DNA from: a virus
Reading direction: 5' to 3' (one strand)
IMG/VR virus record: IMGVR_UViG_3300035363_000016
Location: 1-6,499 of that record
DNA length: 6,499 bases
Of the stretch, positions 1 to 6,499 are shown in pieces (position 1 is the first letter of the stretch; each line of letters starts with the position of its first letter). The notes beneath the pieces were generated by a model. That model had not been told where the DNA came from, searched no databases, and saw nothing but the letters and a program-made list of their open reading frames with translations. The translations under genes were made by a program, and so were the position numbers.

Positions 1-73
1 TGCTTCCGGTAAAGTTTCACAAGCTAAAGCTAATCGTTGCTTTGGTTTTTATCGTCGCCTTCTTAATGAAGGT
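1..73. repeat. Terminal direct repeat, left copy, identical to 6427-6499. It marks circular closure of a 6426-bp genome.
   Basis: Base-by-base comparison shows that the 73 nt at the window start equal the last 73 nt. The repeat lies inside one continuous reading frame (gII), which fits a wrapped circular molecule. Confidence 0.95.
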
Positions 74-277
74 TATGATAATGTCAGTCAAACGATGGAG
101 CGCACTACATTTTGGCGCAATATTCAACTTTTGACTGATGTGGGGTTGTCTAAAGCTCAATTAATGAACCTTACTGCTGAAAATAATGTTATTCCTTTGA
201 TGCGTATTATTAATGTCGATTTTAGCAATCAATTCCCTGTGTGGTATCAAGAGCCACAATCACGCCTTTATGCTTAA
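2..277 (+). CDS. gII: C-terminal part of replication initiation endonuclease pII, and of the nested pX. It continues the ORF that starts at 5468 once the genome is circularised.
   Basis: The frame starting at base 2 is open to TAA at 275-277 and is in phase with 5468..6499 across the 73-nt overlap. The translation ...GFYRRLLNEGYDNVSQTMERTTFWRNIQLL..KAQLMNLTAENNVIPLMRIINVDFSNQFPVWYQEP matches the f1 pII C-terminus as I remember it (..GFYRRLVNEGYDSVALTMPRNSFW..KSQLMNLSTCNNVVPLVRFINVDFSSQRPDWYNEP). The full protein would be 411 aa, against 410 in f1. Confidence 0.9.
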   Translation, partial: ASGKVSQAKANRCFGFYRRLLNEGYDNVSQTMERTTFWRNIQLLTDVGLSKAQLMNLTAENNVIPLMRIINVDFSNQFPVWYQEPQSRLYA

Positions 278-280
278 CGT

Positions 281-300
281 TTTGCGCATGCGCAAATTTT
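281..300 (+). terminator. Perfect 16-bp palindrome TTTGCGCATGCGCAAA (281-296) followed by TTTT. Candidate weak intrinsic terminator/attenuator or operator between gII/gX and gV.
   Basis: Seen directly: the stem UUUGCG/CGCAAA with loop CAUG is followed by a T-run. It lies 4 nt after the gII stop and just upstream of the gV SD (GGAG, 307-310). Confidence 0.35.
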
Positions 301-316
301 ATTTCTGGAGATTATT

Positions 317-586
317 ATGCTGAATGTAGAAGTTAAACCACGTCAGGAAGTTCTCAACACCCGTTCTGGCACTTCCGCTAAAACTGGTAAAGATTATGTA
401 ATGCACGAACAGGGTTGTTATGTTGATCTTGGTGGTGATTATCCTGTCGAAATCAAAATTAACATTCCTGATGGCCAATTGCCTTATCGTGCTGGAAATT
501 ACACTATTGATTTATCCAGCTTCCGTGTTGATGGTTATGGACGTCTTATGGTTGATCGCGTAAAACTTTTGCCGAAAGAAAAATAA
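317..586 (+). CDS. gV: ssDNA-binding protein pV (89 aa)
   Basis: SD GGAG lies 6 nt upstream of the ATG. The translation MLNVEVKPRQEVLNTRSGTSAKTGKDYVMHEQGCYVDLGGDYPVEIKINIPDGQLPYRAGNYTIDLSSFRVDGYGRLMVDRVKLLP resembles f1 pV (MIKVEIKPSQAQFTTRSGVSRQGKPYSLNEQLCYVDLGNEYPVLVKITLDEGQPAYAPGLYTVHLSSFKVGQFGSLMIDRLRLVP). The size and the position after gII are both correct. Confidence 0.92.
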   Translation: MLNVEVKPRQEVLNTRSGTSAKTGKDYVMHEQGCYVDLGGDYPVEIKINIPDGQLPYRAGNYTIDLSSFRVDGYGRLMVDRVKLLPKEK

Positions 587-587
587 T

Positions 588-782
588 ATGGATATCGGCG
601 GCACTATTTGTGATTCAGCTAATACATGTCAGCAAATAATTTTGAAAGTCTCTGACCTATCCGCTGATTATGACTATGTTCATATTAGTCAGGTTTGGGG
701 TATAGGTTTTTCCTCGGTTCTGGGATTGTGGCTAGTTTCATACTGTCTCGGGACTATTGTTAAAGCTGTTCGTAACTCTTAG
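588..782 (+). CDS. Putative minor virion-tip protein in the gVII/gIX slot. It is a single 64-aa ORF with one C-terminal hydrophobic segment.
   Basis: The start overlaps the gV stop (TAATATG) and has no SD of its own. This matches the translational coupling of gVII to gV in Ff. The C-terminal 32 aa ISQVWGIGFSSVLGLWLVSYCLGTIVKAVRNS align without gaps to f1 pIX as I remember it (MSVLVYSFASFVLGWCLRSGITYFTRLMETSS), sharing the SxVLG..L.S core. I found no separate second small ORF in any + frame. Confidence 0.6.
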   Translation: MDIGGTICDSANTCQQIILKVSDLSADYDYVHISQVWGIGFSSVLGLWLVSYCLGTIVKAVRNS

Positions 783-790
783 GTGATACC

Positions 791-1024
791 ATGAAATTCA
801 AAAAACTTTTCAATACCGCTGTTATTTCTGCGCTGGCTGTATCTTCTTCTGCTTTTGCGGCTGAGGGTAGCACTGGTTTCAATATTGATTTCAGCGCCCT
901 TTCTAATAACATCGATTTCTCAGGTGTTATTACTGTATTGATGACTATTGCTGCTGGCGCTATTGGCATTTCTCTTGCCATTGCTGGTATTAAACACATT
1001 AAGAGCCTCGTTCGCTCTTCCTAA
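791..1024 (+). CDS. gVIII: Major coat protein pVIII precursor (77 aa). Predicted 23-aa signal peptide and a mature protein of about 54 aa starting AEGST.
   Basis: SD AGGTGA lies at 781-786. The signal peptide MKFKKLFNTAVISALAVSSSAFA is followed by AEG, as in f1 (..SFA/AEGDD). The layout is an acidic N-terminus, a hydrophobic core VITVLMTIAAGAIGISLAIAG, and a basic C-terminus KHIKSLVRSS. An intrinsic terminator follows immediately, as in Ff. Confidence 0.9.
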   Translation: MKFKKLFNTAVISALAVSSSAFAAEGSTGFNIDFSALSNNIDFSGVITVLMTIAAGAIGISLAIAGIKHIKSLVRSS

Positions 1025-1039
1025 TAACTTTAATATGGT

Positions 1040-1067
1040 ATAGGGAGGTTAAACCCTCCCTATTTTT
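1040..1067 (+). terminator. Rho-independent terminator after gVIII
   Basis: The 9-bp stem ATAGGGAGG (1040-1048) / CCTCCCTAT (1055-1063) is followed by TTTT. Its position corresponds to the central terminator downstream of gVIII in Ff phages. Confidence 0.8.
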
Positions 1068-1113
1068 ATATGGCTCAAATATTAGATTTGGTTGTATTCC
1101 TCTGGGGGTTGTT

Positions 1114-2373
1114 ATGCGCTTGGGCTGTCATTCGTGGTTTTGGATCGCTTTAACTCTCCTTCCTATATCTGCTTCTGCTGCTGTAGTACCCGGTCAATAT
1201 AAATCAGCTACAGTCACTAATTCTGTAAAAACTCTTGTAGAAAAAAAACTTATTGAACGTGGATTTAGTGCTGCTGATTCCCGTTATCCAGCTACTTTAT
1301 CTTCTGTATCTTCTCAGAGTAATAAAATAGCCAATTTCGCTAAGACTGTTTCTATCTCAGGCATTACGGGAAGAAGCTGGTTGACTGCTGGCTTACGTTC
1401 AGCTTTGTTTGGTCGTGGTGCTGTTGTTGCTCTCGCTGCTGGAGCAACTTTAGAGTGGTTGCTTAAAGATGAGGATAACATCCAGATTACAACCTATGAG
1501 CAATCTGATGATGTTGGCCTTGCTGGGTATTACTGGGGCTCTGCTAGCCGTTATGCCCCTACTGTAACGGAGATCGCAAATGGCGTTTGTTCTGCTTATC
1601 AGTATTGCAACCATTTTGTTATCCAGTCCTATAACGCTAATCCATCTCGTGAAGATTTGCGTACCGTTCGCTACTATCTCGATGCTGCGGGCAAGAATGA
1701 ATGGTCGTCAAGCACCGTTACGCGCTTCCCATGTAACAGAGATAGTACGGCTATTGCTTCTTGTCAGCCTGATTATGTTTCAACTGGCAAACCAGTAACT
1801 ACAGTTCTCCCCTATCAGGAAGCTGTTAATACCTTAACTGAGGAAGATCTTAAGAAAGAGCTTAACCCTCAGATTATTGCGGACATCGCGAATAATGTCT
1901 GGCAGCAGGCATCCAATGAGCCTGGTTATGGTGGTGTGCCTTATTCCTCTGCTTATGCTGCAACTTCTGCTGACGCAGCTGCATCAACAGCAACTAAACC
2001 TAAGGTTGGTGATTTGGTTGTGCCCGATCCCGCGTTCGGCACTGATACTGCTACGGAACCTGACCCAAGCACCGGTTCAGGTGGTGACTCTACTATTATT
2101 GGTAAAGATCCCGGCGTTGCCTCCCCTACGTTAGAACCAACTTATACGGCCAAGCAGATAATTGCGCCTATTGAAAACTCAATGCCTTTTTTAACTAACC
2201 TTGAATTACCGGTTAAATCAGCTGTTTGCCCAACTTATTCTTTTGATTGGAATGGCAAAACTTTTACTGCTGATGTTCATTGTGACTTAATTGAGAAATA
2301 TAAAACCATTATTCAGTTAATAGCTTCTATTTGCTGGTCTATTGTTGCGCTTAGAATGATTCTTTCAGCATAA
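1114..2373 (+). CDS. gIII: Minor coat / adsorption protein pIII (419 aa)
   Basis: It sits after gVIII and its terminator and has an Ff-like size (f1 pIII is 424 aa). It has an N-terminal signal peptide (..LLPISASA/AVVPG), paired Cys residues (CSAYQYC, CNRDSTAIASC, C..HC), and a P/T/D/A-rich linker. The C-terminal anchor region ..FDWNGKTFTADVHCDLIEKYKTIIQLIASICWSIVALRMILSA is similar in layout to f1 ..YEFSIDCDKINLFRGVFAFLLYVATFMYVF. I cannot assign the N-terminal receptor-binding part to any family. Confidence 0.8.
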   Translation: MRLGCHSWFWIALTLLPISASAAVVPGQYKSATVTNSVKTLVEKKLIERGFSAADSRYPATLSSVSSQSNKIANFAKTVSISGITGRSWLTAGLRSALFGRGAVVALAAGATLEWLLKDEDNIQITTYEQSDDVGLAGYYWGSASRYAPTVTEIANGVCSAYQYCNHFVIQSYNANPSREDLRTVRYYLDAAGKNEWSSSTVTRFPCNRDSTAIASCQPDYVSTGKPVTTVLPYQEAVNTLTEEDLKKELNPQIIADIANNVWQQASNEPGYGGVPYSSAYAATSADAAASTATKPKVGDLVVPDPAFGTDTATEPDPSTGSGGDSTIIGKDPGVASPTLEPTYTAKQIIAPIENSMPFLTNLELPVKSAVCPTYSFDWNGKTFTADVHCDLIEKYKTIIQLIASICWSIVALRMILSA

Positions 2374-2383
2374 GGATTAATAT

Positions 2384-2671
2384 ATGTTTGGCATTGTTCT
2401 CTCTGCATTGAATACTGTTTTAGGTTTTGTGCTCCGTGGTGTTGTTGTAAAGTTTTTGGTAATGGGAGCATGTTATTATGTTGTATCAGAGTTATTTGGT
2501 TATATAACTTATTTATTACCACAAAATACTGATATTGTTGATTTATATAATATGCTTCCTGATTCTATGATTTTTTTTAGTAACTTGTTTCTGTTGCCAT
2601 ATGGCTTAAAAATAGCATTTTCAGCAATGTTTACACGTTTTATTATTCGCAGAATACCTTTGGTGGGTTGA
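2384..2671 (+). CDS. gVI: Minor coat protein pVI-like small membrane protein (95 aa)
   Basis: SD AAGGA lies at 2372-2376. It is a very hydrophobic protein with several predicted membrane segments, placed between gIII and gI. Its stop is coupled to the gI start (TGATATG). The call rests on position and composition. Sequence similarity to f1 pVI is not evident by eye. Confidence 0.7.
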   Translation: MFGIVLSALNTVLGFVLRGVVVKFLVMGACYYVVSELFGYITYLLPQNTDIVDLYNMLPDSMIFFSNLFLLPYGLKIAFSAMFTRFIIRRIPLVG

Positions 2672-2672
2672 T

Positions 2673-3698
2673 ATGTCTATTCATGCTTATGTTGGAATAC
2701 CGGGTTCCGGTAAGTCCTATGAGGTTGTAGGGAGTGTTATACTTCCTGCCTTTATTCAGGGTCGTAAAATAATAACTAATATATCCGGCATTAATTTGCA
2801 GGCATTTATTGATTATTGTGAAGCTGATAAAAAAATCGACTCTTCAAAATTAGGAACTATTGAAATAGTATCTGATTCTGATGTATTAAAGGATAACTTC
2901 TTTCCCAACAATGGCATAGACGACCCAATTTGTAAGCCAGGAAGCCTTATTTGTCTTGATGAAATTCATAAATTTTGGGAAAAGGATAGTAAACTATCAG
3001 ATAAGGCTAAGGAGTTCTTCGCGGAGCATCGTCACTTTGCTGACCCAGAAACTAAATCTACATGTGATGTTGTATTAATAACGCAATCAGTTAAGTCTAT
3101 TGCTTTGTTTATCCGTCATCGTATTGAGTCTGTTTTCTCAATGCACAAACTTATTGCTGTTGGTAAAAATAATAGATTTAGGGTCGATATTTATAGCTCT
3201 TCTGATTTAAAACCTGTCAATAAAATAACTTCTTATCAGAAGAAGTATGATTCAAAAATTTATGCCTTATATAAGTCACATTTCGTTAATGGTGCTGTTG
3301 AGAATGTTGTAGATAATAGAACTAATATTTTTGCAAAAAAATCTCTCTGGGTAAAAATGATTTTGTGCTTATTATTTATTTTTGGTGCTATTTATCAGGT
3401 CTACTCATTTTTGCACCCAAAATCTGATAAGCCTGAAATTGTTAATAATGAGAATCACGTAAATTCTGAACCTCCTAAAATTACAGAAATTAATACTGTG
3501 ATAAAGGAGCCTACCTATAAACTCTCATCTTATTGGAGAATAACAGGCGAATTAAATAATTCTAAAGGTAAGTTTATTATTATTGCTTCGAAAGATGGTG
3601 TTATTCGTTTATTAGATAGAGATCTTTTCTTTGGAAATGACTTAACAATGTATGGGATTGTTGATAATGAAAAAGTTACTTATTACAGTGGTGTATAA
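2673..3698 (+). CDS. gI: Assembly ATPase pI, Zot family (341 aa)
   Basis: Walker A is GIPGSGKSY near the N-terminus and Walker B-like is SLICLDEIHKFW. A single TM segment LWVKMILCLLFIFGAIYQVYSFL lies about two thirds along, followed by a periplasmic C-terminal domain. The N-terminus MSIHAYVGIPGSGKSYEVVGSVILPAFIQGRKIITNISGINL resembles CTXphi Zot ([42 protein letters not shown]) more than f1 pI (MAVYFVTGKLGSGKTLVSVGKIQDKIVAGCKIATNLDL). Confidence 0.9.
   Translation: MSIHAYVGIPGSGKSYEVVGSVILPAFIQGRKIITNISGINLQAFIDYCEADKKIDSSKLGTIEIVSDSDVLKDNFFPNNGIDDPICKPGSLICLDEIHKFWEKDSKLSDKAKEFFAEHRHFADPETKSTCDVVLITQSVKSIALFIRHRIESVFSMHKLIAVGKNNRFRVDIYSSSDLKPVNKITSYQKKYDSKIYALYKSHFVNGAVENVVDNRTNIFAKKSLWVKMILCLLFIFGAIYQVYSFLHPKSDKPEIVNNENHVNSEPPKITEINTVIKEPTYKLSSYWRITGELNNSKGKFIIIASKDGVIRLLDRDLFFGNDLTMYGIVDNEKVTYYSGV
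3357..3698 (+). CDS. gXI: Possible nested pXI (113 aa) from the in-frame internal ATG of gI, just before the TM segment
   Basis: The in-frame Met (codon 229 of gI) lies immediately before the membrane segment (MILCLLFIFGAIY..). This mirrors f1, where pXI (108 aa) starts at an internal Met just upstream of the pI TM helix. The call is by analogy only. I saw no strong SD. Confidence 0.35.
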   Translation: MILCLLFIFGAIYQVYSFLHPKSDKPEIVNNENHVNSEPPKITEINTVIKEPTYKLSSYWRITGELNNSKGKFIIIASKDGVIRLLDRDLFFGNDLTMYGIVDNEKVTYYSGV

Positions 3699-3699
3699 T

Positions 3700-4905
3700 A
3701 TGAAATCCTTTATTGCTTTATTAACTTTAATCCCCTTTATTGTAACGGCTAAAGGCGTTGATTTTTCTCTTGATGGAGTCACTATTCCAAAGTCTGTATC
3801 TTTTATTTATACGAAAGTCTTTAATAAGCCTTTCATGATTGCACCTGAGATTATTGAAGATTCACGTCTAGTTTCTTTTCATATAACTCCTGATTTAGAT
3901 GAAAAACAGTTTTATGTTAGGTATTTAAATAACATGGGCGTTGGTGTTTCTTCTAAAAATGGCGTTGATTATATTTATAAGATTAAAGAGCAGGAATTAA
4001 AGATACCTTCATATACATTTACTTATAAACCGAAATATAGGTCGGTAAGTTATTTGAATGGTGTACTAAAAACTGTAGTACCTGACGGCTCTTTCGGAGC
4101 TGCTGACAATAATGTTAATGGTGTATCAATAACCTCTAAATCTATGGGTAGTCTTAACGTTGCATCTTCTGGTGATGTATTCGTTTACTATGGGCCTCGC
4201 GCCTCAATTGCTCGTCTTGAGGCGGTTATACCATCTGTCGATACGCCTACTGACGAAGTGTATGTTGGTGGCTATGTCTATGAGGTACAGACGACTCAGC
4301 GTAATGGCTCTGGGCTTGCCATTGCTGCCAACCTACTAAATCAGAAGCTGAGCATTCAAATTGGTAATCCCCTTGGTTCTGGGTCGGATAACTTCATAAA
4401 GTTCAGTAGCGGCTCTCTCAGTGCGTTGTATGAGCTGTTTAACACTGATAGCAGGTTTACTGTTGTTAGTTCCCCTGCTTTGCGTGCGCGTTCTGGTAGC
4501 CAGGCTAGTTTTGCTGTTGGATCAGATGTGCCTGTACTTGGTCAGGTAAGCTATCAGGGTGATTCTGCTGTGCAGTCAGTTGAGTATCGTTCAAGTGGAG
4601 TTATTTTTAACGTTTATCCAGAAGTTAGACAAAATTCAATTGATTTAACTATTAGCCAGGAGCTATCTAATTTCGCCAAAACTGAAACCGGAGTTAATAA
4701 CTCCCCAACATTAATTAAAAGAAATATCCAAACATCAGTTTCTGTTAGCGATGGCGATATTATTATGATTGGTGGCCTTGCTGATAATAAAGATAATAAT
4801 CAAGGTACTGGTTTATCTTTCCTTCCTTGGTTTAAAACTGAGGGTAACGAGAAGAGTAAGACAGATATTGTCATTGTACTGCAAGCGAAGAAGGTTAAGC
4901 GGTAG
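3700..4905 (+). CDS. gIV: Outer-membrane secretin pIV (401 aa from ATG 3700; the ORF is open from 3652)
   Basis: ATG 3700 overlaps the gI stop in the same TAATATG junction used at gV/ORF64, and it gives a typical signal peptide MKSFIALLTLIPFIVTAKG. Secretin-domain hallmarks are VYVGGYVYEVQ..., ..FTVVSSPALRARSGSQASFAVGSDVPV.., ..SVSDGDIIMIGGLADNK..GLSFLPWF.. and a C-terminal ..IVIVLQAKKV. The position downstream of gI is correct. Confidence 0.88.
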   Translation: MKSFIALLTLIPFIVTAKGVDFSLDGVTIPKSVSFIYTKVFNKPFMIAPEIIEDSRLVSFHITPDLDEKQFYVRYLNNMGVGVSSKNGVDYIYKIKEQELKIPSYTFTYKPKYRSVSYLNGVLKTVVPDGSFGAADNNVNGVSITSKSMGSLNVASSGDVFVYYGPRASIARLEAVIPSVDTPTDEVYVGGYVYEVQTTQRNGSGLAIAANLLNQKLSIQIGNPLGSGSDNFIKFSSGSLSALYELFNTDSRFTVVSSPALRARSGSQASFAVGSDVPVLGQVSYQGDSAVQSVEYRSSGVIFNVYPEVRQNSIDLTISQELSNFAKTETGVNNSPTLIKRNIQTSVSVSDGDIIMIGGLADNKDNNQGTGLSFLPWFKTEGNEKSKTDIVIVLQAKKVKR

Positions 4906-4954
4906 TTCGTGACAGCCCCCCGGAGGAACGAGGAGGGCGGTCACGAACTACCGC
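4899..4954 (+). other. Long imperfect hairpin directly after, and overlapping, the gIV stop. Candidate packaging signal and/or terminator (f1 hairpin A equivalent).
   Basis: The 15-bp perfect stem GCGGTAGTTCGTGAC (4899-4913) / GTCACGAACTACCGC (4940-4954) can extend through further G:C pairs in the interior (GCCC/GGGC). In Ff the packaging-signal hairpin occupies this same position at the start of the IG. Confidence 0.6.
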
Positions 4955-4995
4955 CCTTCTTCCCGCCACGTTTACCATTGTCAAATCGTCAAGTT

Positions 4996-5097
4996 CTAAA
5001 TCGTGGGGGCCCCTTTGGGGTTCCGATTTAGTGCTTGATGACTCCACCCTTTTACATCCTTGTTATGGGTGATGGATCACGTAGTGGGCCATCGCCC
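4996..5097 (+). promoter_or_regulatory. Minus-strand (complementary-strand) origin, equivalent to f1 hairpins B and C
   Basis: Hairpin 4996-5031 has stems CTAAATCG/CGATTTAG and inner CCCC-TTT-GGGG. Hairpin 5067-5097 pairs GGGTGATGG with CCATCGCCC. The sequence TCTAAATCGTGGGGGCCCCTTTGGGGTTCCGATTTAGTGCTT....GGGTGATGGATCACGTAGTGGGCCATCGCCCTG is close to the f1 IG as I remember it (CTCTAAATCGGGGGCTCCCTTTAGGGTTCCGATTTAGTGCTT...GGGTGATGGTTCACGTAGTGGGCCATCGCCCTG). Confidence 0.8.
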
Positions 5098-5141
5098 TGT
5101 TAAGCCGGTTTTGATTTTGCCTTCAGCCTCGCCGCAGGCGA

Positions 5142-5182
5142 TCCACTATGTTTAATAGTGGACTCTTGTTGCATTTTGCAAC
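5142..5182 (+). promoter_or_regulatory. Plus-strand origin core: pII nick hairpin plus the adjacent pII-binding hairpin. The predicted nick lies between T5153 and A5154.
   Basis: TCCACTAT-GTTTA-ATAGTGGA (5142-5162) is followed by CTCTTGTTGCATTTTGCAAC, with stem GTTGCA/TGCAAC at 5168-5182. The f1 origin reads GAGTCCACGTTCTTT/AATAGTGGACTCTTGTTCCAAACTGGAAC. The block TTTAATAGTGGACTCTTGTT is identical in both. Confidence 0.8.
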
Positions 5183-5186
5183 GTGC

Positions 5187-5375
5187 TTACCCCCTCGCCT
5201 CTCTTACAGTTCCCTCTATTGCGTCATTAAGATGATGTTTTATAAGGTAATTTATCAAATCTGTTTGTTTTATAATCACACCTGCCCTAGTTGTCGCCTC
5301 AACTGCTGCTTTTCTGACCTCATCTGCTACAGATTTGTTAATGGTTACAGACGATCGCTTTGCACTTTCTGACAT
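5187..5375 (-). CDS. Small minus-strand ORF (62 aa) within the IG. Putative ribbon-helix-helix (CopG/Arc/MetJ-like) DNA-binding regulator.
   Basis: On the minus strand, SD GAGGGTG precedes the ATG by about 8-11 nt. The translation is MSESAKRSSVTINKSVADEVRKAAVEATTRAGVIIKQTDLINYLIKHHLNDAIEGTVREARG. It fits an RHH layout: a basic N-terminal beta-strand (KRSSVTIN), helix A (SVADEVRKAAVEATTRAG), and helix B (TDLINYLIKHHL). The composition is protein-like, whereas the codon-registered + strand ORF over the same bases is Cys-rich and implausible. It is divergent from gII, with repeats in the shared control region. There is no homology search behind this call. Confidence 0.5.
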   Translation of the reverse strand: MSESAKRSSVTINKSVADEVRKAAVEATTRAGVIIKQTDLINYLIKHHLNDAIEGTVREARG

Positions 5376-5402
5376 TTTTTTACACCCTCTAATATTTTCC
5401 GC

Positions 5403-5431
5403 TTGCCTGCCGATAACATGTTATGTATCTT
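5403..5431 (+). promoter_or_regulatory. Candidate sigma70-type gII promoter: -35 TTGCCT (5403-5408), 17-nt spacer, -10 TATCTT (5426-5431)
   Basis: The hexamers each match consensus at 4/6 with the optimal 17-nt spacing, about 37 nt upstream of the gII ATG. In Ff the gII promoter also lies at the end of the IG. This is pattern matching only. Confidence 0.3.
5413..5424. promoter_or_regulatory. Perfect 12-bp palindrome ATAACATGTTAT. Candidate operator within the spacer of the putative gII promoter.
   Basis: The palindrome itself is seen directly. It sits between the divergent RHH-like ORF and gII. The core ACATGTT recurs at 5474-5480, just inside gII. Confidence 0.35.
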
Positions 5432-5439
5432 GGTTCGCA

Positions 5440-5463
5440 TTGAATGTTTGAATGTTTGAGTGT
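5440..5463 (+). repeat. Three tandem 8-bp direct repeats, TTGAATGT TTGAATGT TTGAGTGT, ending 4 nt before the gII ATG
   Basis: The repeats are seen directly. They cover the gII leader and the weak SD (GAGTG, 5458-5462). Tandem 8-bp units resemble the operator organisation used by some RHH repressors, for example the MetJ met-boxes. Confidence 0.6.
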
Positions 5464-5467
5464 CCGT

Positions 5468-6499
5468 ATGATTGACATGTTGGCATTAAGAATACCATTT
5501 AAAGATGAGTTTGTTACGAAACGATTGGAGGGTAATGATTTGATTGCTCACATCGATCTCGCTGATATTGCTCGTCTTTCTGGCATTGCTTTGTCTGCAT
5601 ATACCGTCGAATACGCGATTGATGGTGATTTGACTGTATCCGGCCTTAAACATGCTTATGAGTCGCTACCTACCCACTATTCAGGCATAGCTCTAAAAGT
5701 GTTTGAAGGTGGTAAGAATTTCTACCCCTGCGTAGAGATTAAGGCTTCTCCAGCTAAGGTTTTGCAGGGTCATAACGTATTTGGCCCTGTAGACCTTGAA
5801 CTTTGCGGAACTGAGCTTTTAGGCTCTCTTGCCGTTTCCCTGCCTGCTCTTTTTGATTTAGTGGACGTACCTTCAACAACTATTACACGTCTTGACGTGA
5901 CTTATTCTGCCCGTGTGGAGAATGATCACATTGCAAAGCAGGTTATTTCTTTCCTCCGCAACATTTCAAATGGTCAGACTAAAAAGACTCGTGCTCAGGA
6001 TTGGGATACGACTGTAATGTGGAATGAAAACAGTCGTCACCGTACTCTTGTTGCATATTTGAAATTTGCTGAACTGATGAACGATCTTAAAAAGTTAAGA
6101 GATACGCCGTCTGCTAAACTTGGCTTAGCTCGTCAGAATCGTTTGAAGGTAATGTCTAATCCCGACCTTCATGATTTTGCCTCTGGTTTAGTTCGTTTTG
6201 AGGCCAGGCTTAAAACTCGTTTTTTAAAGTCTTTTGGTTTTCCAGAAAAATTTGTAGATGCTGTAAATTATCAAAAATCATACGTTTCTGATTCTGGCTG
6301 TGTAATTTCTGACCTTTGGAAAAAATCATTTTCTGAACTGTTTAAAACATTCGAGGGTAGTGATATGAACGTTTATGACGATTCTAAAGTTTATTCTGCA
6401 CTTATTAACGCATATTCCTCTGTCACTGCTTCCGGTAAAGTTTCACAAGCTAAAGCTAATCGTTGCTTTGGTTTTTATCGTCGCCTTCTTAATGAAGGT
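5468..6499 (+). CDS. gII: Replication initiation endonuclease pII, N-terminal 344 codons. The ORF runs off the window end and continues at base 74 of the window after circularisation.
   Basis: The translation MIDMLALRIPFKDEFVTKRLEGNDLIAHIDLADIARLSGIALSAYTVEYAIDGDLTVSGLKHAYESLPTHYSGIALKVFEGGKNFYPCVEIKASPAKVLQGHNVFGP... closely parallels f1 pII (MIDMLVLRLPFIDSLVCSRLSGNDLIAFVDLSKIATLSGMNLSARTVEYHIDGDLTVSGLSHPFESLPTHYSGIAFKIYEGSKNFYPCVEIKASPAKVLQGHNVFGT...). Confidence 0.95.
   Translation, partial: MIDMLALRIPFKDEFVTKRLEGNDLIAHIDLADIARLSGIALSAYTVEYAIDGDLTVSGLKHAYESLPTHYSGIALKVFEGGKNFYPCVEIKASPAKVLQGHNVFGPVDLELCGTELLGSLAVSLPALFDLVDVPSTTITRLDVTYSARVENDHIAKQVISFLRNISNGQTKKTRAQDWDTTVMWNENSRHRTLVAYLKFAELMNDLKKLRDTPSAKLGLARQNRLKVMSNPDLHDFASGLVRFEARLKTRFLKSFGFPEKFVDAVNYQKSYVSDSGCVISDLWKKSFSELFKTFEGSDMNVYDDSKVYSALINAYSSVTASGKVSQAKANRCFGFYRRLLNEG
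6365..6499 (+). CDS. gX: Nested pX, from the in-frame internal start of gII. It would be 112 aa after circularisation, ending at window base 277.
   Basis: The internal ATG has SD GAGGG about 8 nt upstream. The product starts MNVYDDSKVYSALI.., matching the f1 pX start MNIYDDSAVLDAI.. at the equivalent codon of gII. Confidence 0.6.
   Translation, partial: MNVYDDSKVYSALINAYSSVTASGKVSQAKANRCFGFYRRLLNEG
6427..6499. repeat. Terminal direct repeat, right copy, identical to 1-73
   Basis: Exact 73/73 identity with the window start. Confidence 0.95.

Follow-up and report, generated by a model that had tools for sequence, protein, structure and literature searches.

A 6,499-nt stretch of viral DNA (IMG/VR record IMGVR_UViG_3300035363_000016, positions 1 to 6,499; hereafter the window) carries a short open reading frame (ORF) on its minus strand (5187-5375), in the interval that separates the plus-strand origin from gene II, which encodes the replication initiator pII. 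We found that this ORF is a conserved gene under selection, an unannotated member of the RstR-like small regulators, which inoviruses encode divergently from the replication gene, in phages that were thought to have none. The best overall explanation, to which we give a probability of about 0.65, is that a real RstR-like gene represses gene II through the control region separating the two genes. IKe, If1 and I2-2 have served as reference genomes since 1985-1992, with about ten genes on one strand and a non-coding intergenic region; the small gene is a feature of these lineages and not an oddity of the window phage, and, as a conserved and selected reverse-strand gene, it adds a gene to these model genomes.

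A minus-strand gene under purifying selection

The ORF begins with an ATG (CAT at 5373-5375 on the plus strand), ends with a TAA (TTA at 5187-5189) and would encode a basic protein of 62 aa (pI 9.3), MSESAKRSSVTINKSVADEVRKAAVEATTRAGVIIKQTDLINYLIKHHLNDAIEGTVREARG. It is preceded by a Shine-Dalgarno (SD) sequence, AGAGGGTG, the reverse complement of 5383-5390, whose GAGGG core (5385-5389, minus strand) ends 9 nt before the ATG. An earlier reading, made from the letters of this DNA (the sequence-only reading), had proposed a 62-codon minus-strand ORF with a GAGG-type SD here, and both elements were confirmed. The locus was compared across nine IKe-like genomes, namely the window, IKe, PEar4 and six metagenomic genomes of ~6.5-6.8 kb (L007, L009 and L024-L027). 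The same frame was open at the equivalent place in all nine, each with a purine-rich SD (GAGG, AGGAG or TAGGA) 8-12 nt before the ATG despite differing flanks. Across the window, L007, IKe and PEar4, this frame was the only stop-free one of the six. Substitutions followed the order 3 > 1 > 2 by codon position in every pairwise comparison, with differences at positions 1/2/3 of 17/9/28 between IKe and PEar4 and 11/5/33 between the viruses Dulem 56 and 52. The ratio of nonsynonymous to synonymous differences (pN/pS) ranged from 0.29 to 0.66 within the IKe-like group, pN being lower than pS at a bootstrap P≤0.004 in 10 of the 11 pairs and at P=0.07 in the remaining one. The bias towards synonymous change that the sequence-only reading had named as a check was thus present, and the small gene is under purifying selection. 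Since the frame is the sole stop-free one in four genomes and is under purifying selection, it is far beyond what chance would produce, and that 5187-5375 is a real gene is practically certain.

The sequence-only reading had itself warned that the ORF might be a chance open frame in diverged origin-enhancer DNA. The region is indeed A+T-rich, its opposite strand is open too in the window, and a short TTTATAAGG island within it still aligns with the origin flank of M13. The resemblance of the ORF segment TGTTTTATAAGGTAATTT to the Ff enhancer TGATTTATAAGGGATTTT, on which that warning rested, is real in the alignment but confined to this short island. However, the frame is conserved in more than 100 protein clusters, in phages with unrelated origins and replication proteins, and it combines codon-position bias, pN/pS<1, the absence of stops in this frame only and a confident structure prediction, whereas in M13 stops interrupt each of the three minus frames and no similarity reaches significance. 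We therefore reject the chance frame as highly improbable. A plus-strand ORF at 5148-5372 (74 aa) overlaps the small gene, as expected from the earlier remark that both strands are open over the same stretch. It was rejected as a gene: stops interrupt its frame in L007, IKe and PEar4, so it is a chance by-product of the opposite strand.

The gene is tightly packed against the core of the plus-strand origin (5142-5186, plus strand), which comprises the hairpin TCCACTATGTTTAATAGTGGA with the nick motif, followed by pII-binding repeats, and which is near-identical to the annotated viral-strand origin hairpins of IKe. The stop codon abuts this core and lies 30-33 nt past the nick motif in seven of the nine genomes. 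The other two, L007 (1351-1626) and PEar4 (L002), have lost the stop codon, so that minus-strand translation would continue across the origin hairpin and add ~25-29 aa. The gene II ATG lies 314 nt from the nick motif AATAGTGGAC in the window, compared with 225 nt in M13, very near the figures in the sequence-only reading (315 nt, and roughly 225 nt in f1). The extra length exists but is not peculiar to the window phage; since IKe has 321 nt, it characterises the lineage.

An exact 10-nt direct repeat, TGTTTTATAA, occurs inside the gene at 5236-5245 and 5266-5275, 30 nt apart. It is partly kept in IKe and PEar4, its minus-strand products are LIKH and IIKQ, and it may double as an enhancer-like DNA element of the origin flank.

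The small gene belongs to a family that includes a CTXphi RstR allele

The window protein matched phrog_2503 ('unknown function') with E=8.8e-10 over residues 4-54, and the IKe, Dulem, Salmonella and VAI1 proteins matched the same group. A profile search gathered 74 clusters at 90% identity, each of them unnamed or labelled hypothetical and devoid of Pfam domains, and an exhaustive HMMER search gathered 110 representatives at 50% identity. When the family profile was compared by hhalign with individual relatives, it aligned with the 'RstR-like putative transcriptional regulator' of Vibrio phage VAI1 (97.8%, E=7e-13), with the 86-aa 'environmental' RstR of CTXphi (97.8%, E=7.3e-13) and with a member from a V. 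cyclitrophicus inovirus (98.5%). A single-sequence Pfam scan of the window protein and a PADLOC search gave no match, and NCBIfam returned one sub-threshold match without meaning. On these grounds the window protein very probably belongs to PHROG 2503, the RstR-like small regulators of inoviruses, and the family, with more than 100 clusters lacking an assigned function, gains a functional lead.

The VAI1 protein is 95% identical to an rstR gene found in CTXphi/pre-CTXphi records (86 aa; GQ466611 ACV95583, GU942563 ADE80682, UniProt C9E7D4), which is annotated as 'environmental RstR; cryptic phage CTXphi transcriptional repressor' and as 'similar to RstR proteins found in non-O1, non-O139 strains'. 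This allele and the VAI1 regulator share with the window protein the PHROG, a similar core size and a position divergent from the replication gene across a short promoter region, although the environmental RstR is only ~25% identical to it. The phages also differ. CTXphi is temperate, integrates through XerCD and has an antirepressor, RstC, annotated in the RS1 element, whereas the window phage has no dif-like site and its small gene is wedged against the plus-strand origin, in DNA annotated as non-coding.

The canonical El Tor RstR (112 aa) occupies the same genomic slot, and its role there, repressing the rstA promoter allele-specifically and conferring immunity (PMC11509585), is the function proposed here. 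Its fold, in contrast, is unrelated (Pfam HTH_3, E=4.9e-16; hhalign against the family profile, 0.15% probability), so the window protein would at most work like the El Tor RstR, without kinship, and is a relative of the non-HTH RstR. Because the El Tor RstR is an HTH_3 protein and the environmental allele is a family member, the CTXphi rstR slot is filled by at least two unrelated protein folds. Both kinds occur in one CTX prophage array, L030 (GU942563), with an HTH_3 RstR (112 aa; 738-1076) beside rstA1 and the 86-aa family member (6336-6596) beside rstA2.

In lux reporter assays each rstR allele represses its own ig-2 (rstA) promoter in an allele-specific manner (PMC11509585). With rstR6 on ig-2(6), luminescence fell from 2.18e5 to 1.94e4, about 11-fold, and heterologous promoters were unaffected (PMC11509585, Table 2). 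The rstR6 forward primer matches the start of the V. cyclitrophicus inovirus family gene at 29 of 31 nt, and the C-terminus encoded by the reverse primer is similar to that of the environmental allele, suggesting that rstR6 (AF452586) is probably a family member. A search of the viral contig collection with the rstR6 primer gave no match.

The sequence-only reading had suggested that the ORF might be the equivalent of the RstR-type repressors that lie divergent from the replication gene. This reading is supported, as a CTXphi rstR allele proved to be both a homolog of the gene and its best match in structure (see below). Homology to a CTXphi repressor allele further suggests that inoviruses, even those that never integrate, commonly regulate transcription of the replication initiator, and that this regulation is ancestral.

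The gene keeps its place beside unrelated replication genes

In every genome inspected, the small gene was the nearest gene upstream of the replication gene, in divergent orientation and across a gap of ~70-170 bp. The distance between the ATG codons of the small gene and gene II is 92 bp in the window and 91-136 bp across the nine IKe-like genomes. This arrangement was found in IKe-like episomes with a pII of the Phage_CRI family, in the Dulem viruses, in VAI1, CTXphi and V. cyclitrophicus phages with RstA, in Pasteurella and Actinobacillus prophages, which form tandem arrays and lack an integrase, in Salmonella prophages with a replication protein of the Rep_trans family, and in I2-2, with yet another replication protein. 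Integrated inovirus prophages that carry the family gene and no integrase gene include L014 and L015 (Pasteurella), L018 (Actinobacillus) and L011-L013 (Salmonella). That the association with the replication-gene promoter survives exchange of both the replication protein and the origin argues for promoter control.

The position can also be read in another way, namely that the gene encodes a real protein acting on replication or maintenance, either an accessory factor of the origin flank or a ParG/omega-like copy-number or centromere-binding protein stabilising the episomal replicative form (RF). The gene sits where f1 has its domain B replication enhancer, its stop codon abuts the core origin, and the TGTTTTATAA repeat lies within it. 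The nearest ribbon-helix-helix (RHH) relative by sequence is ParG, a plasmid partition protein, and copy-number control has been put forward as the role of an omega-like RHH gene in PMBT54, an episomal filamentous phage (PMC10534721). Against this, the 6.4-kb genome encodes no partner of the ParA/ParF type, the adjacency to the replication promoter is kept with at least four unrelated replication proteins and origins, a pattern better suited to promoter control than to binding at a particular origin, and the characterised occupants of the slot are transcriptional repressors of the replication promoter (PMC11509585). We consider a replication or maintenance role unlikely. Toxin-antitoxin or partition functions of the ParD/CcdA or ParG type were rejected because the partner genes are absent: no co-directional ORF follows the small gene, the remaining genes are the standard inovirus ones, and PADLOC detected none.

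The predicted fold resembles ribbon-helix-helix proteins

An AlphaFold2 monomer model, built from a 49-sequence alignment, was confident (mean predicted local distance difference test score, pLDDT, 90.8) and consists of an extended N-terminal segment, a helix at residues 14-31, a five-residue loop and a second helix at 37-61. The strand-helix-helix topology of the RHH superfamily is thus found in the model, and the structure prediction that the sequence-only reading had named as a check came out in its favour at the monomer level. DSSP assigns no strand in the monomer, as expected if the strand pairs only in a dimer, and in S9-V10-T11-I12-N13 the polar residues S9, T11 and N13 alternate, by inspection, with the hydrophobic V10 and I12, as in RHH strands.

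Sequence searches pointed weakly in the same direction. ParG (1p94) was the top match in the PDB (E=0.19; range across profiles, 0.19-0.26), and sub-threshold Pfam matches among the 49 members were to ParG (16/49), RHH_3 (6/49) and RHH_5 (1/49). With a broader profile of 102 sequences, hhalign aligned the family with the RHH segment of ParG at 90.8%; the alignment spans the strand and the two helices and places six inserted residues in helix A. The best PDB sequence match of this broader profile was TTHA0139 (E=0.003), for which a literature search found nothing. The sequence support for an RHH protein is coherent but weak, and may be taken as moderate overall.

Among viral models, the top Foldseek match was the CTXphi RstR C9E7D4 (TM score 0.85, root-mean-square deviation 1.4 Å, 25% identity, probability 1.0, E=2e-3), and a 'putative regulator' of Alteromonas phage phiAFP1 ranked third. 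RHH proteins (NikR, ParD2, Reg576 and ParD1) dominate the top of the non-significant list of PDB matches, where a TCP domain is also found. The protein resembles known RHH regulators (ParG of TP228, CopG, Arc/Mnt, omega and the ParD antitoxins) in its predicted strand-helix-helix order, but differs from them in the length of its helices, 18 and 25 residues in the model, and in lacking a ParF or toxin partner; RHH helices are typically shorter than these. The proposal of an RHH-like fold in the sequence-only reading stands as far as the confident strand-helix-helix model goes and falls short at Pfam, where no RHH family reached threshold. An RHH fold is likely rather than established, and the model is consistent with a small basic DNA-binding protein that fits an RHH dimer.

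Occurrence and loss in the classical coliphages

The non-coding nature of the intergenic region, which the sequence-only reading had taken for granted in IKe, proved wrong, as IKe, If1 and, in frameshifted form, I2-2 all carry the small gene. The IKe homolog (65 aa plus stop; record positions 6604-6801, minus strand) is unannotated, as is that of PEar4. If1 (L021, NC_001954) has an intact 67-aa member at 5119-5322 (locus 820-1023, minus strand), inside the annotated 'major intergenic region', which matched the broad profile with E=8e-25 at Z=1e6. In I2-2 (L029, NC_001332; 2720-2918, minus strand) the gene is split by a single frameshift into an N-terminal half (2784-2918, profile positions 5-42) and a C-terminal half in another frame (2720-2860, profile positions 44-66), and repair of this one frameshift gave E=5e-14; the split reflects either a pseudogene or an error in the 1992 sequence.

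Homologs in sister phages, 48-66% identical, carry no functional annotation, and the reference records label the region intergenic. The NCBI Prokaryotic Genome Annotation Pipeline calls a 'hypothetical protein' (e.g. WP_025902261.1) in assemblies of E. coli, Klebsiella, Salmonella, Citrobacter, Tatumella and Pantoea. The region is called intergenic in I2-2, IKe and M13 by one study (PMC7307601), another annotates only ten or eleven plus-strand genes (PMC7697814), and our literature search found no description of a minus-strand gene in IKe, If1 or I2-2. In If1, a 147-aa minus-strand ORF (locus 1089-1532) and the annotated ORF348 (record positions 6040-7086) stand between the family gene and the remaining genome and look like an inserted element.

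The gene is lacking in M13, in which the equivalent DNA has stops in all three minus frames and no significant DNA or protein similarity. The domain B replication enhancer of the Ff phages (f1/M13/fd) occupies the same place, directly downstream of the core plus origin and upstream of gene II, and its TTTATAAGG island aligns with small-gene DNA, yet it is non-coding and the segment is 89 nt shorter in M13. The notion that domain B is a decayed small gene is unproven, as nhmmer gave E=0.57 limited to TTTATAAGG and a stop-tolerant protein profile search gave nothing.

Among the Erwinia phages, PEar1 (L006, 6450-6560) as deposited is devoid of the nick motif and of most of the small gene, and PEar2 and PEar6 probably have the same deficit, judging from identical coordinates and identity in the DNA search. 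In PEar4 (L002, 6400-6740) the origin hairpin has been shifted upstream, and the small ORF, read through, reaches 90 aa. These anomalies are assembly artefacts or deletion/rearrangement variants.

Such losses are what a relic of an integrating temperate ancestor, without function today, would show, and an integrating ancestor of IKe and I2-2 has been proposed in work on UPphi (PMC7307601). The absence of the gene from PEar1/2/6, its frameshift in I2-2 and the missing stop codon in L007 and PEar4 all fit this view, as they would a host-directed regulator or an orphan antitoxin-like protein, and some relatives have extra small genes downstream of the family gene. On the other side, purifying selection acts inside the episomal IKe-like group itself, the SD and the start codon are retained in nine of nine genomes, and, for the antitoxin-like variant, the window contains no toxin-like partner and the gene ends at the origin. 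We regard these alternatives as quite improbable, more so than a role in replication or maintenance.

A control region and a proposed repression of gene II

Gene II, the presumed target of regulation, runs on the plus strand from 5468 to 6499 and then from 74 to 277 across the terminal overlap of the window (411 aa). Between it and the small gene lies a divergent control region of 92 bp (5376-5467), presumed to hold both promoters and an operator. A candidate gene II promoter (5403-5431, plus strand) has a -35 element TTGCCT (5403-5408), a 17-nt spacer and a -10 element TATCTT (5426-5431); it agrees with the consensus at 8 of 12 positions (8.5 with the spacing bonus), which is under the cut-off of the scan tool, and was found by a custom scan. 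An equivalent element, TTGnnT-16/17-TAnnTT, has its -10 ending 33-36 nt before the gene II ATG in the window, L009, L007, L025, L026, IKe and PEar4; in L024 it is 14 nt farther from that ATG, at 50 nt, and the control region of L027 contained no equivalent candidate.

Within the spacer of the candidate promoter lies a perfect 12-bp palindrome, ATAACATGTTAT (5413-5424), our candidate operator. It is the sole exact copy in the genome, and a palindrome of this length arose in 1.2% of dinucleotide shuffles of the 92-nt region (P=0.012). ATAACATGTTAT is common to L009, L007 and L024, and its ACATGT core is found at the same place in IKe and PEar4. Just upstream of the gene II start, in the leader of its mRNA, stand three tandem G/T-rich 8-mers, TTGAATGT TTGAATGT TTGAGTGT (5440-5463, plus strand), and GTGAGTG(T/C)TTGAGTG(C/T)TTGAA occurs at the same place in IKe, PEar4 and L026. 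Gene V protein controls the translation of gene II mRNA in f1, and by this analogy the 8-mers are more likely a target of gene V protein, a direct-repeat operator being the alternative.

We propose that the small gene would be transcribed away from gene II out of the shared 92-bp region, and that its product, as an RHH-type dimer, would bind ATAACATGTTAT between the -35 and -10 elements of the gene II promoter. The bound dimer would occlude RNA polymerase there, and probably also at its own back-to-back promoter, so that the pII gene, and probably the small gene too, would be transcribed less. RF copy number and phage output would thereby be held down, and the same phage might be kept from superinfecting the cell, a role modelled on that of RstR at the rstA promoter of CTXphi. 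By this analogy the small protein probably represses gene II, a judgement slightly less firm than that on its fold.

Several observations weigh against an RstR-like repressor of gene II. As to its target sites, no inverted repeat in the other lineages' control regions reaches significance on its own, the control region of L025 has no inverted repeat, and a search for a minus-strand sigma-70 promoter gave no candidate that was of consensus grade or positionally conserved. The fold lacks a threshold match to the Pfam RHH families, and Foldseek against the PDB gave no hit with E<1. The link of the reporter-assayed rstR6 to the family is through its primer-encoded termini only. The same DNA may also serve as origin flank, at the position of f1 domain B, possibly adding to its conservation. 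PEar1/2/6, as deposited, are without most of the gene yet form plaques (PMC7697814), and the I2-2 reference is frameshifted, so that either productive infection does not require the gene or the gene decays in culture; dispensability for plaque formation is expected of a repressor but equally of a relic. Finally, a hypervariable immunity region was considered and dropped, since the small gene is not consistently more diverged than the genome, unlike the CTXphi immunity alleles. Identity of the ORF versus the rest of the genome was 0.71 vs 0.90 for IKe/PEar4, 0.92 vs 0.89 for window/L007, 0.74 vs 0.62 for window/L024 and 0.71 vs 0.68 for L026/L027.

Extended to the lineages, the proposal would be that IKe, If1, I2-2 and the window phage encode a functional opposite-strand repressor of the RstR type that throttles gene II (setting RF copy number, a carrier state or homo-immunity), and that only Ff lost it, leaving domain B. 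We hold this broader version tentatively, at somewhat less than even confidence. The presence of the gene bears on how an IKe-type origin or intergenic region is cut for vectors, and on the tuning of phage output.

Genome context of the window phage

The window is a complete filamentous-phage genome, in which positions 1-73 are repeated at 6427-6499; this 73-nt terminal direct overlap implies a circle of 6426 nt. All standard genes are on the plus strand, namely gV, an ORF of 64 aa at the gVII/gIX position, gVIII, gIII, gVI, gI, gIV and gene II, and gene II of relatives encodes the Pfam domains Phage_CRI and G2P_X_C. At the DNA level, matches to known phages were intergenic pieces only, 84-87% identical to IKe and the Erwinia PEar phages. 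The order from packaging/minus-origin hairpins to plus origin to gII is collinear with IKe and PEar4. The window phage is a distant IKe-like (Lineavirus-like) inovirus.

No integrase gene was found among the window ORFs, and in a search for a dif-like attP site the best match to the arms of E. coli dif had 8 mismatches, the same as in shuffled sequence; the phage looks purely episomal. An Rfam scan of the window gave no match. The 64-aa ORF (588-782, plus strand) stands where IKe has both gVII (32 aa) and gIX (33 aa), a similar call of 65 aa is present in L024, and the window ORF could be a fused or replaced minor coat gene.

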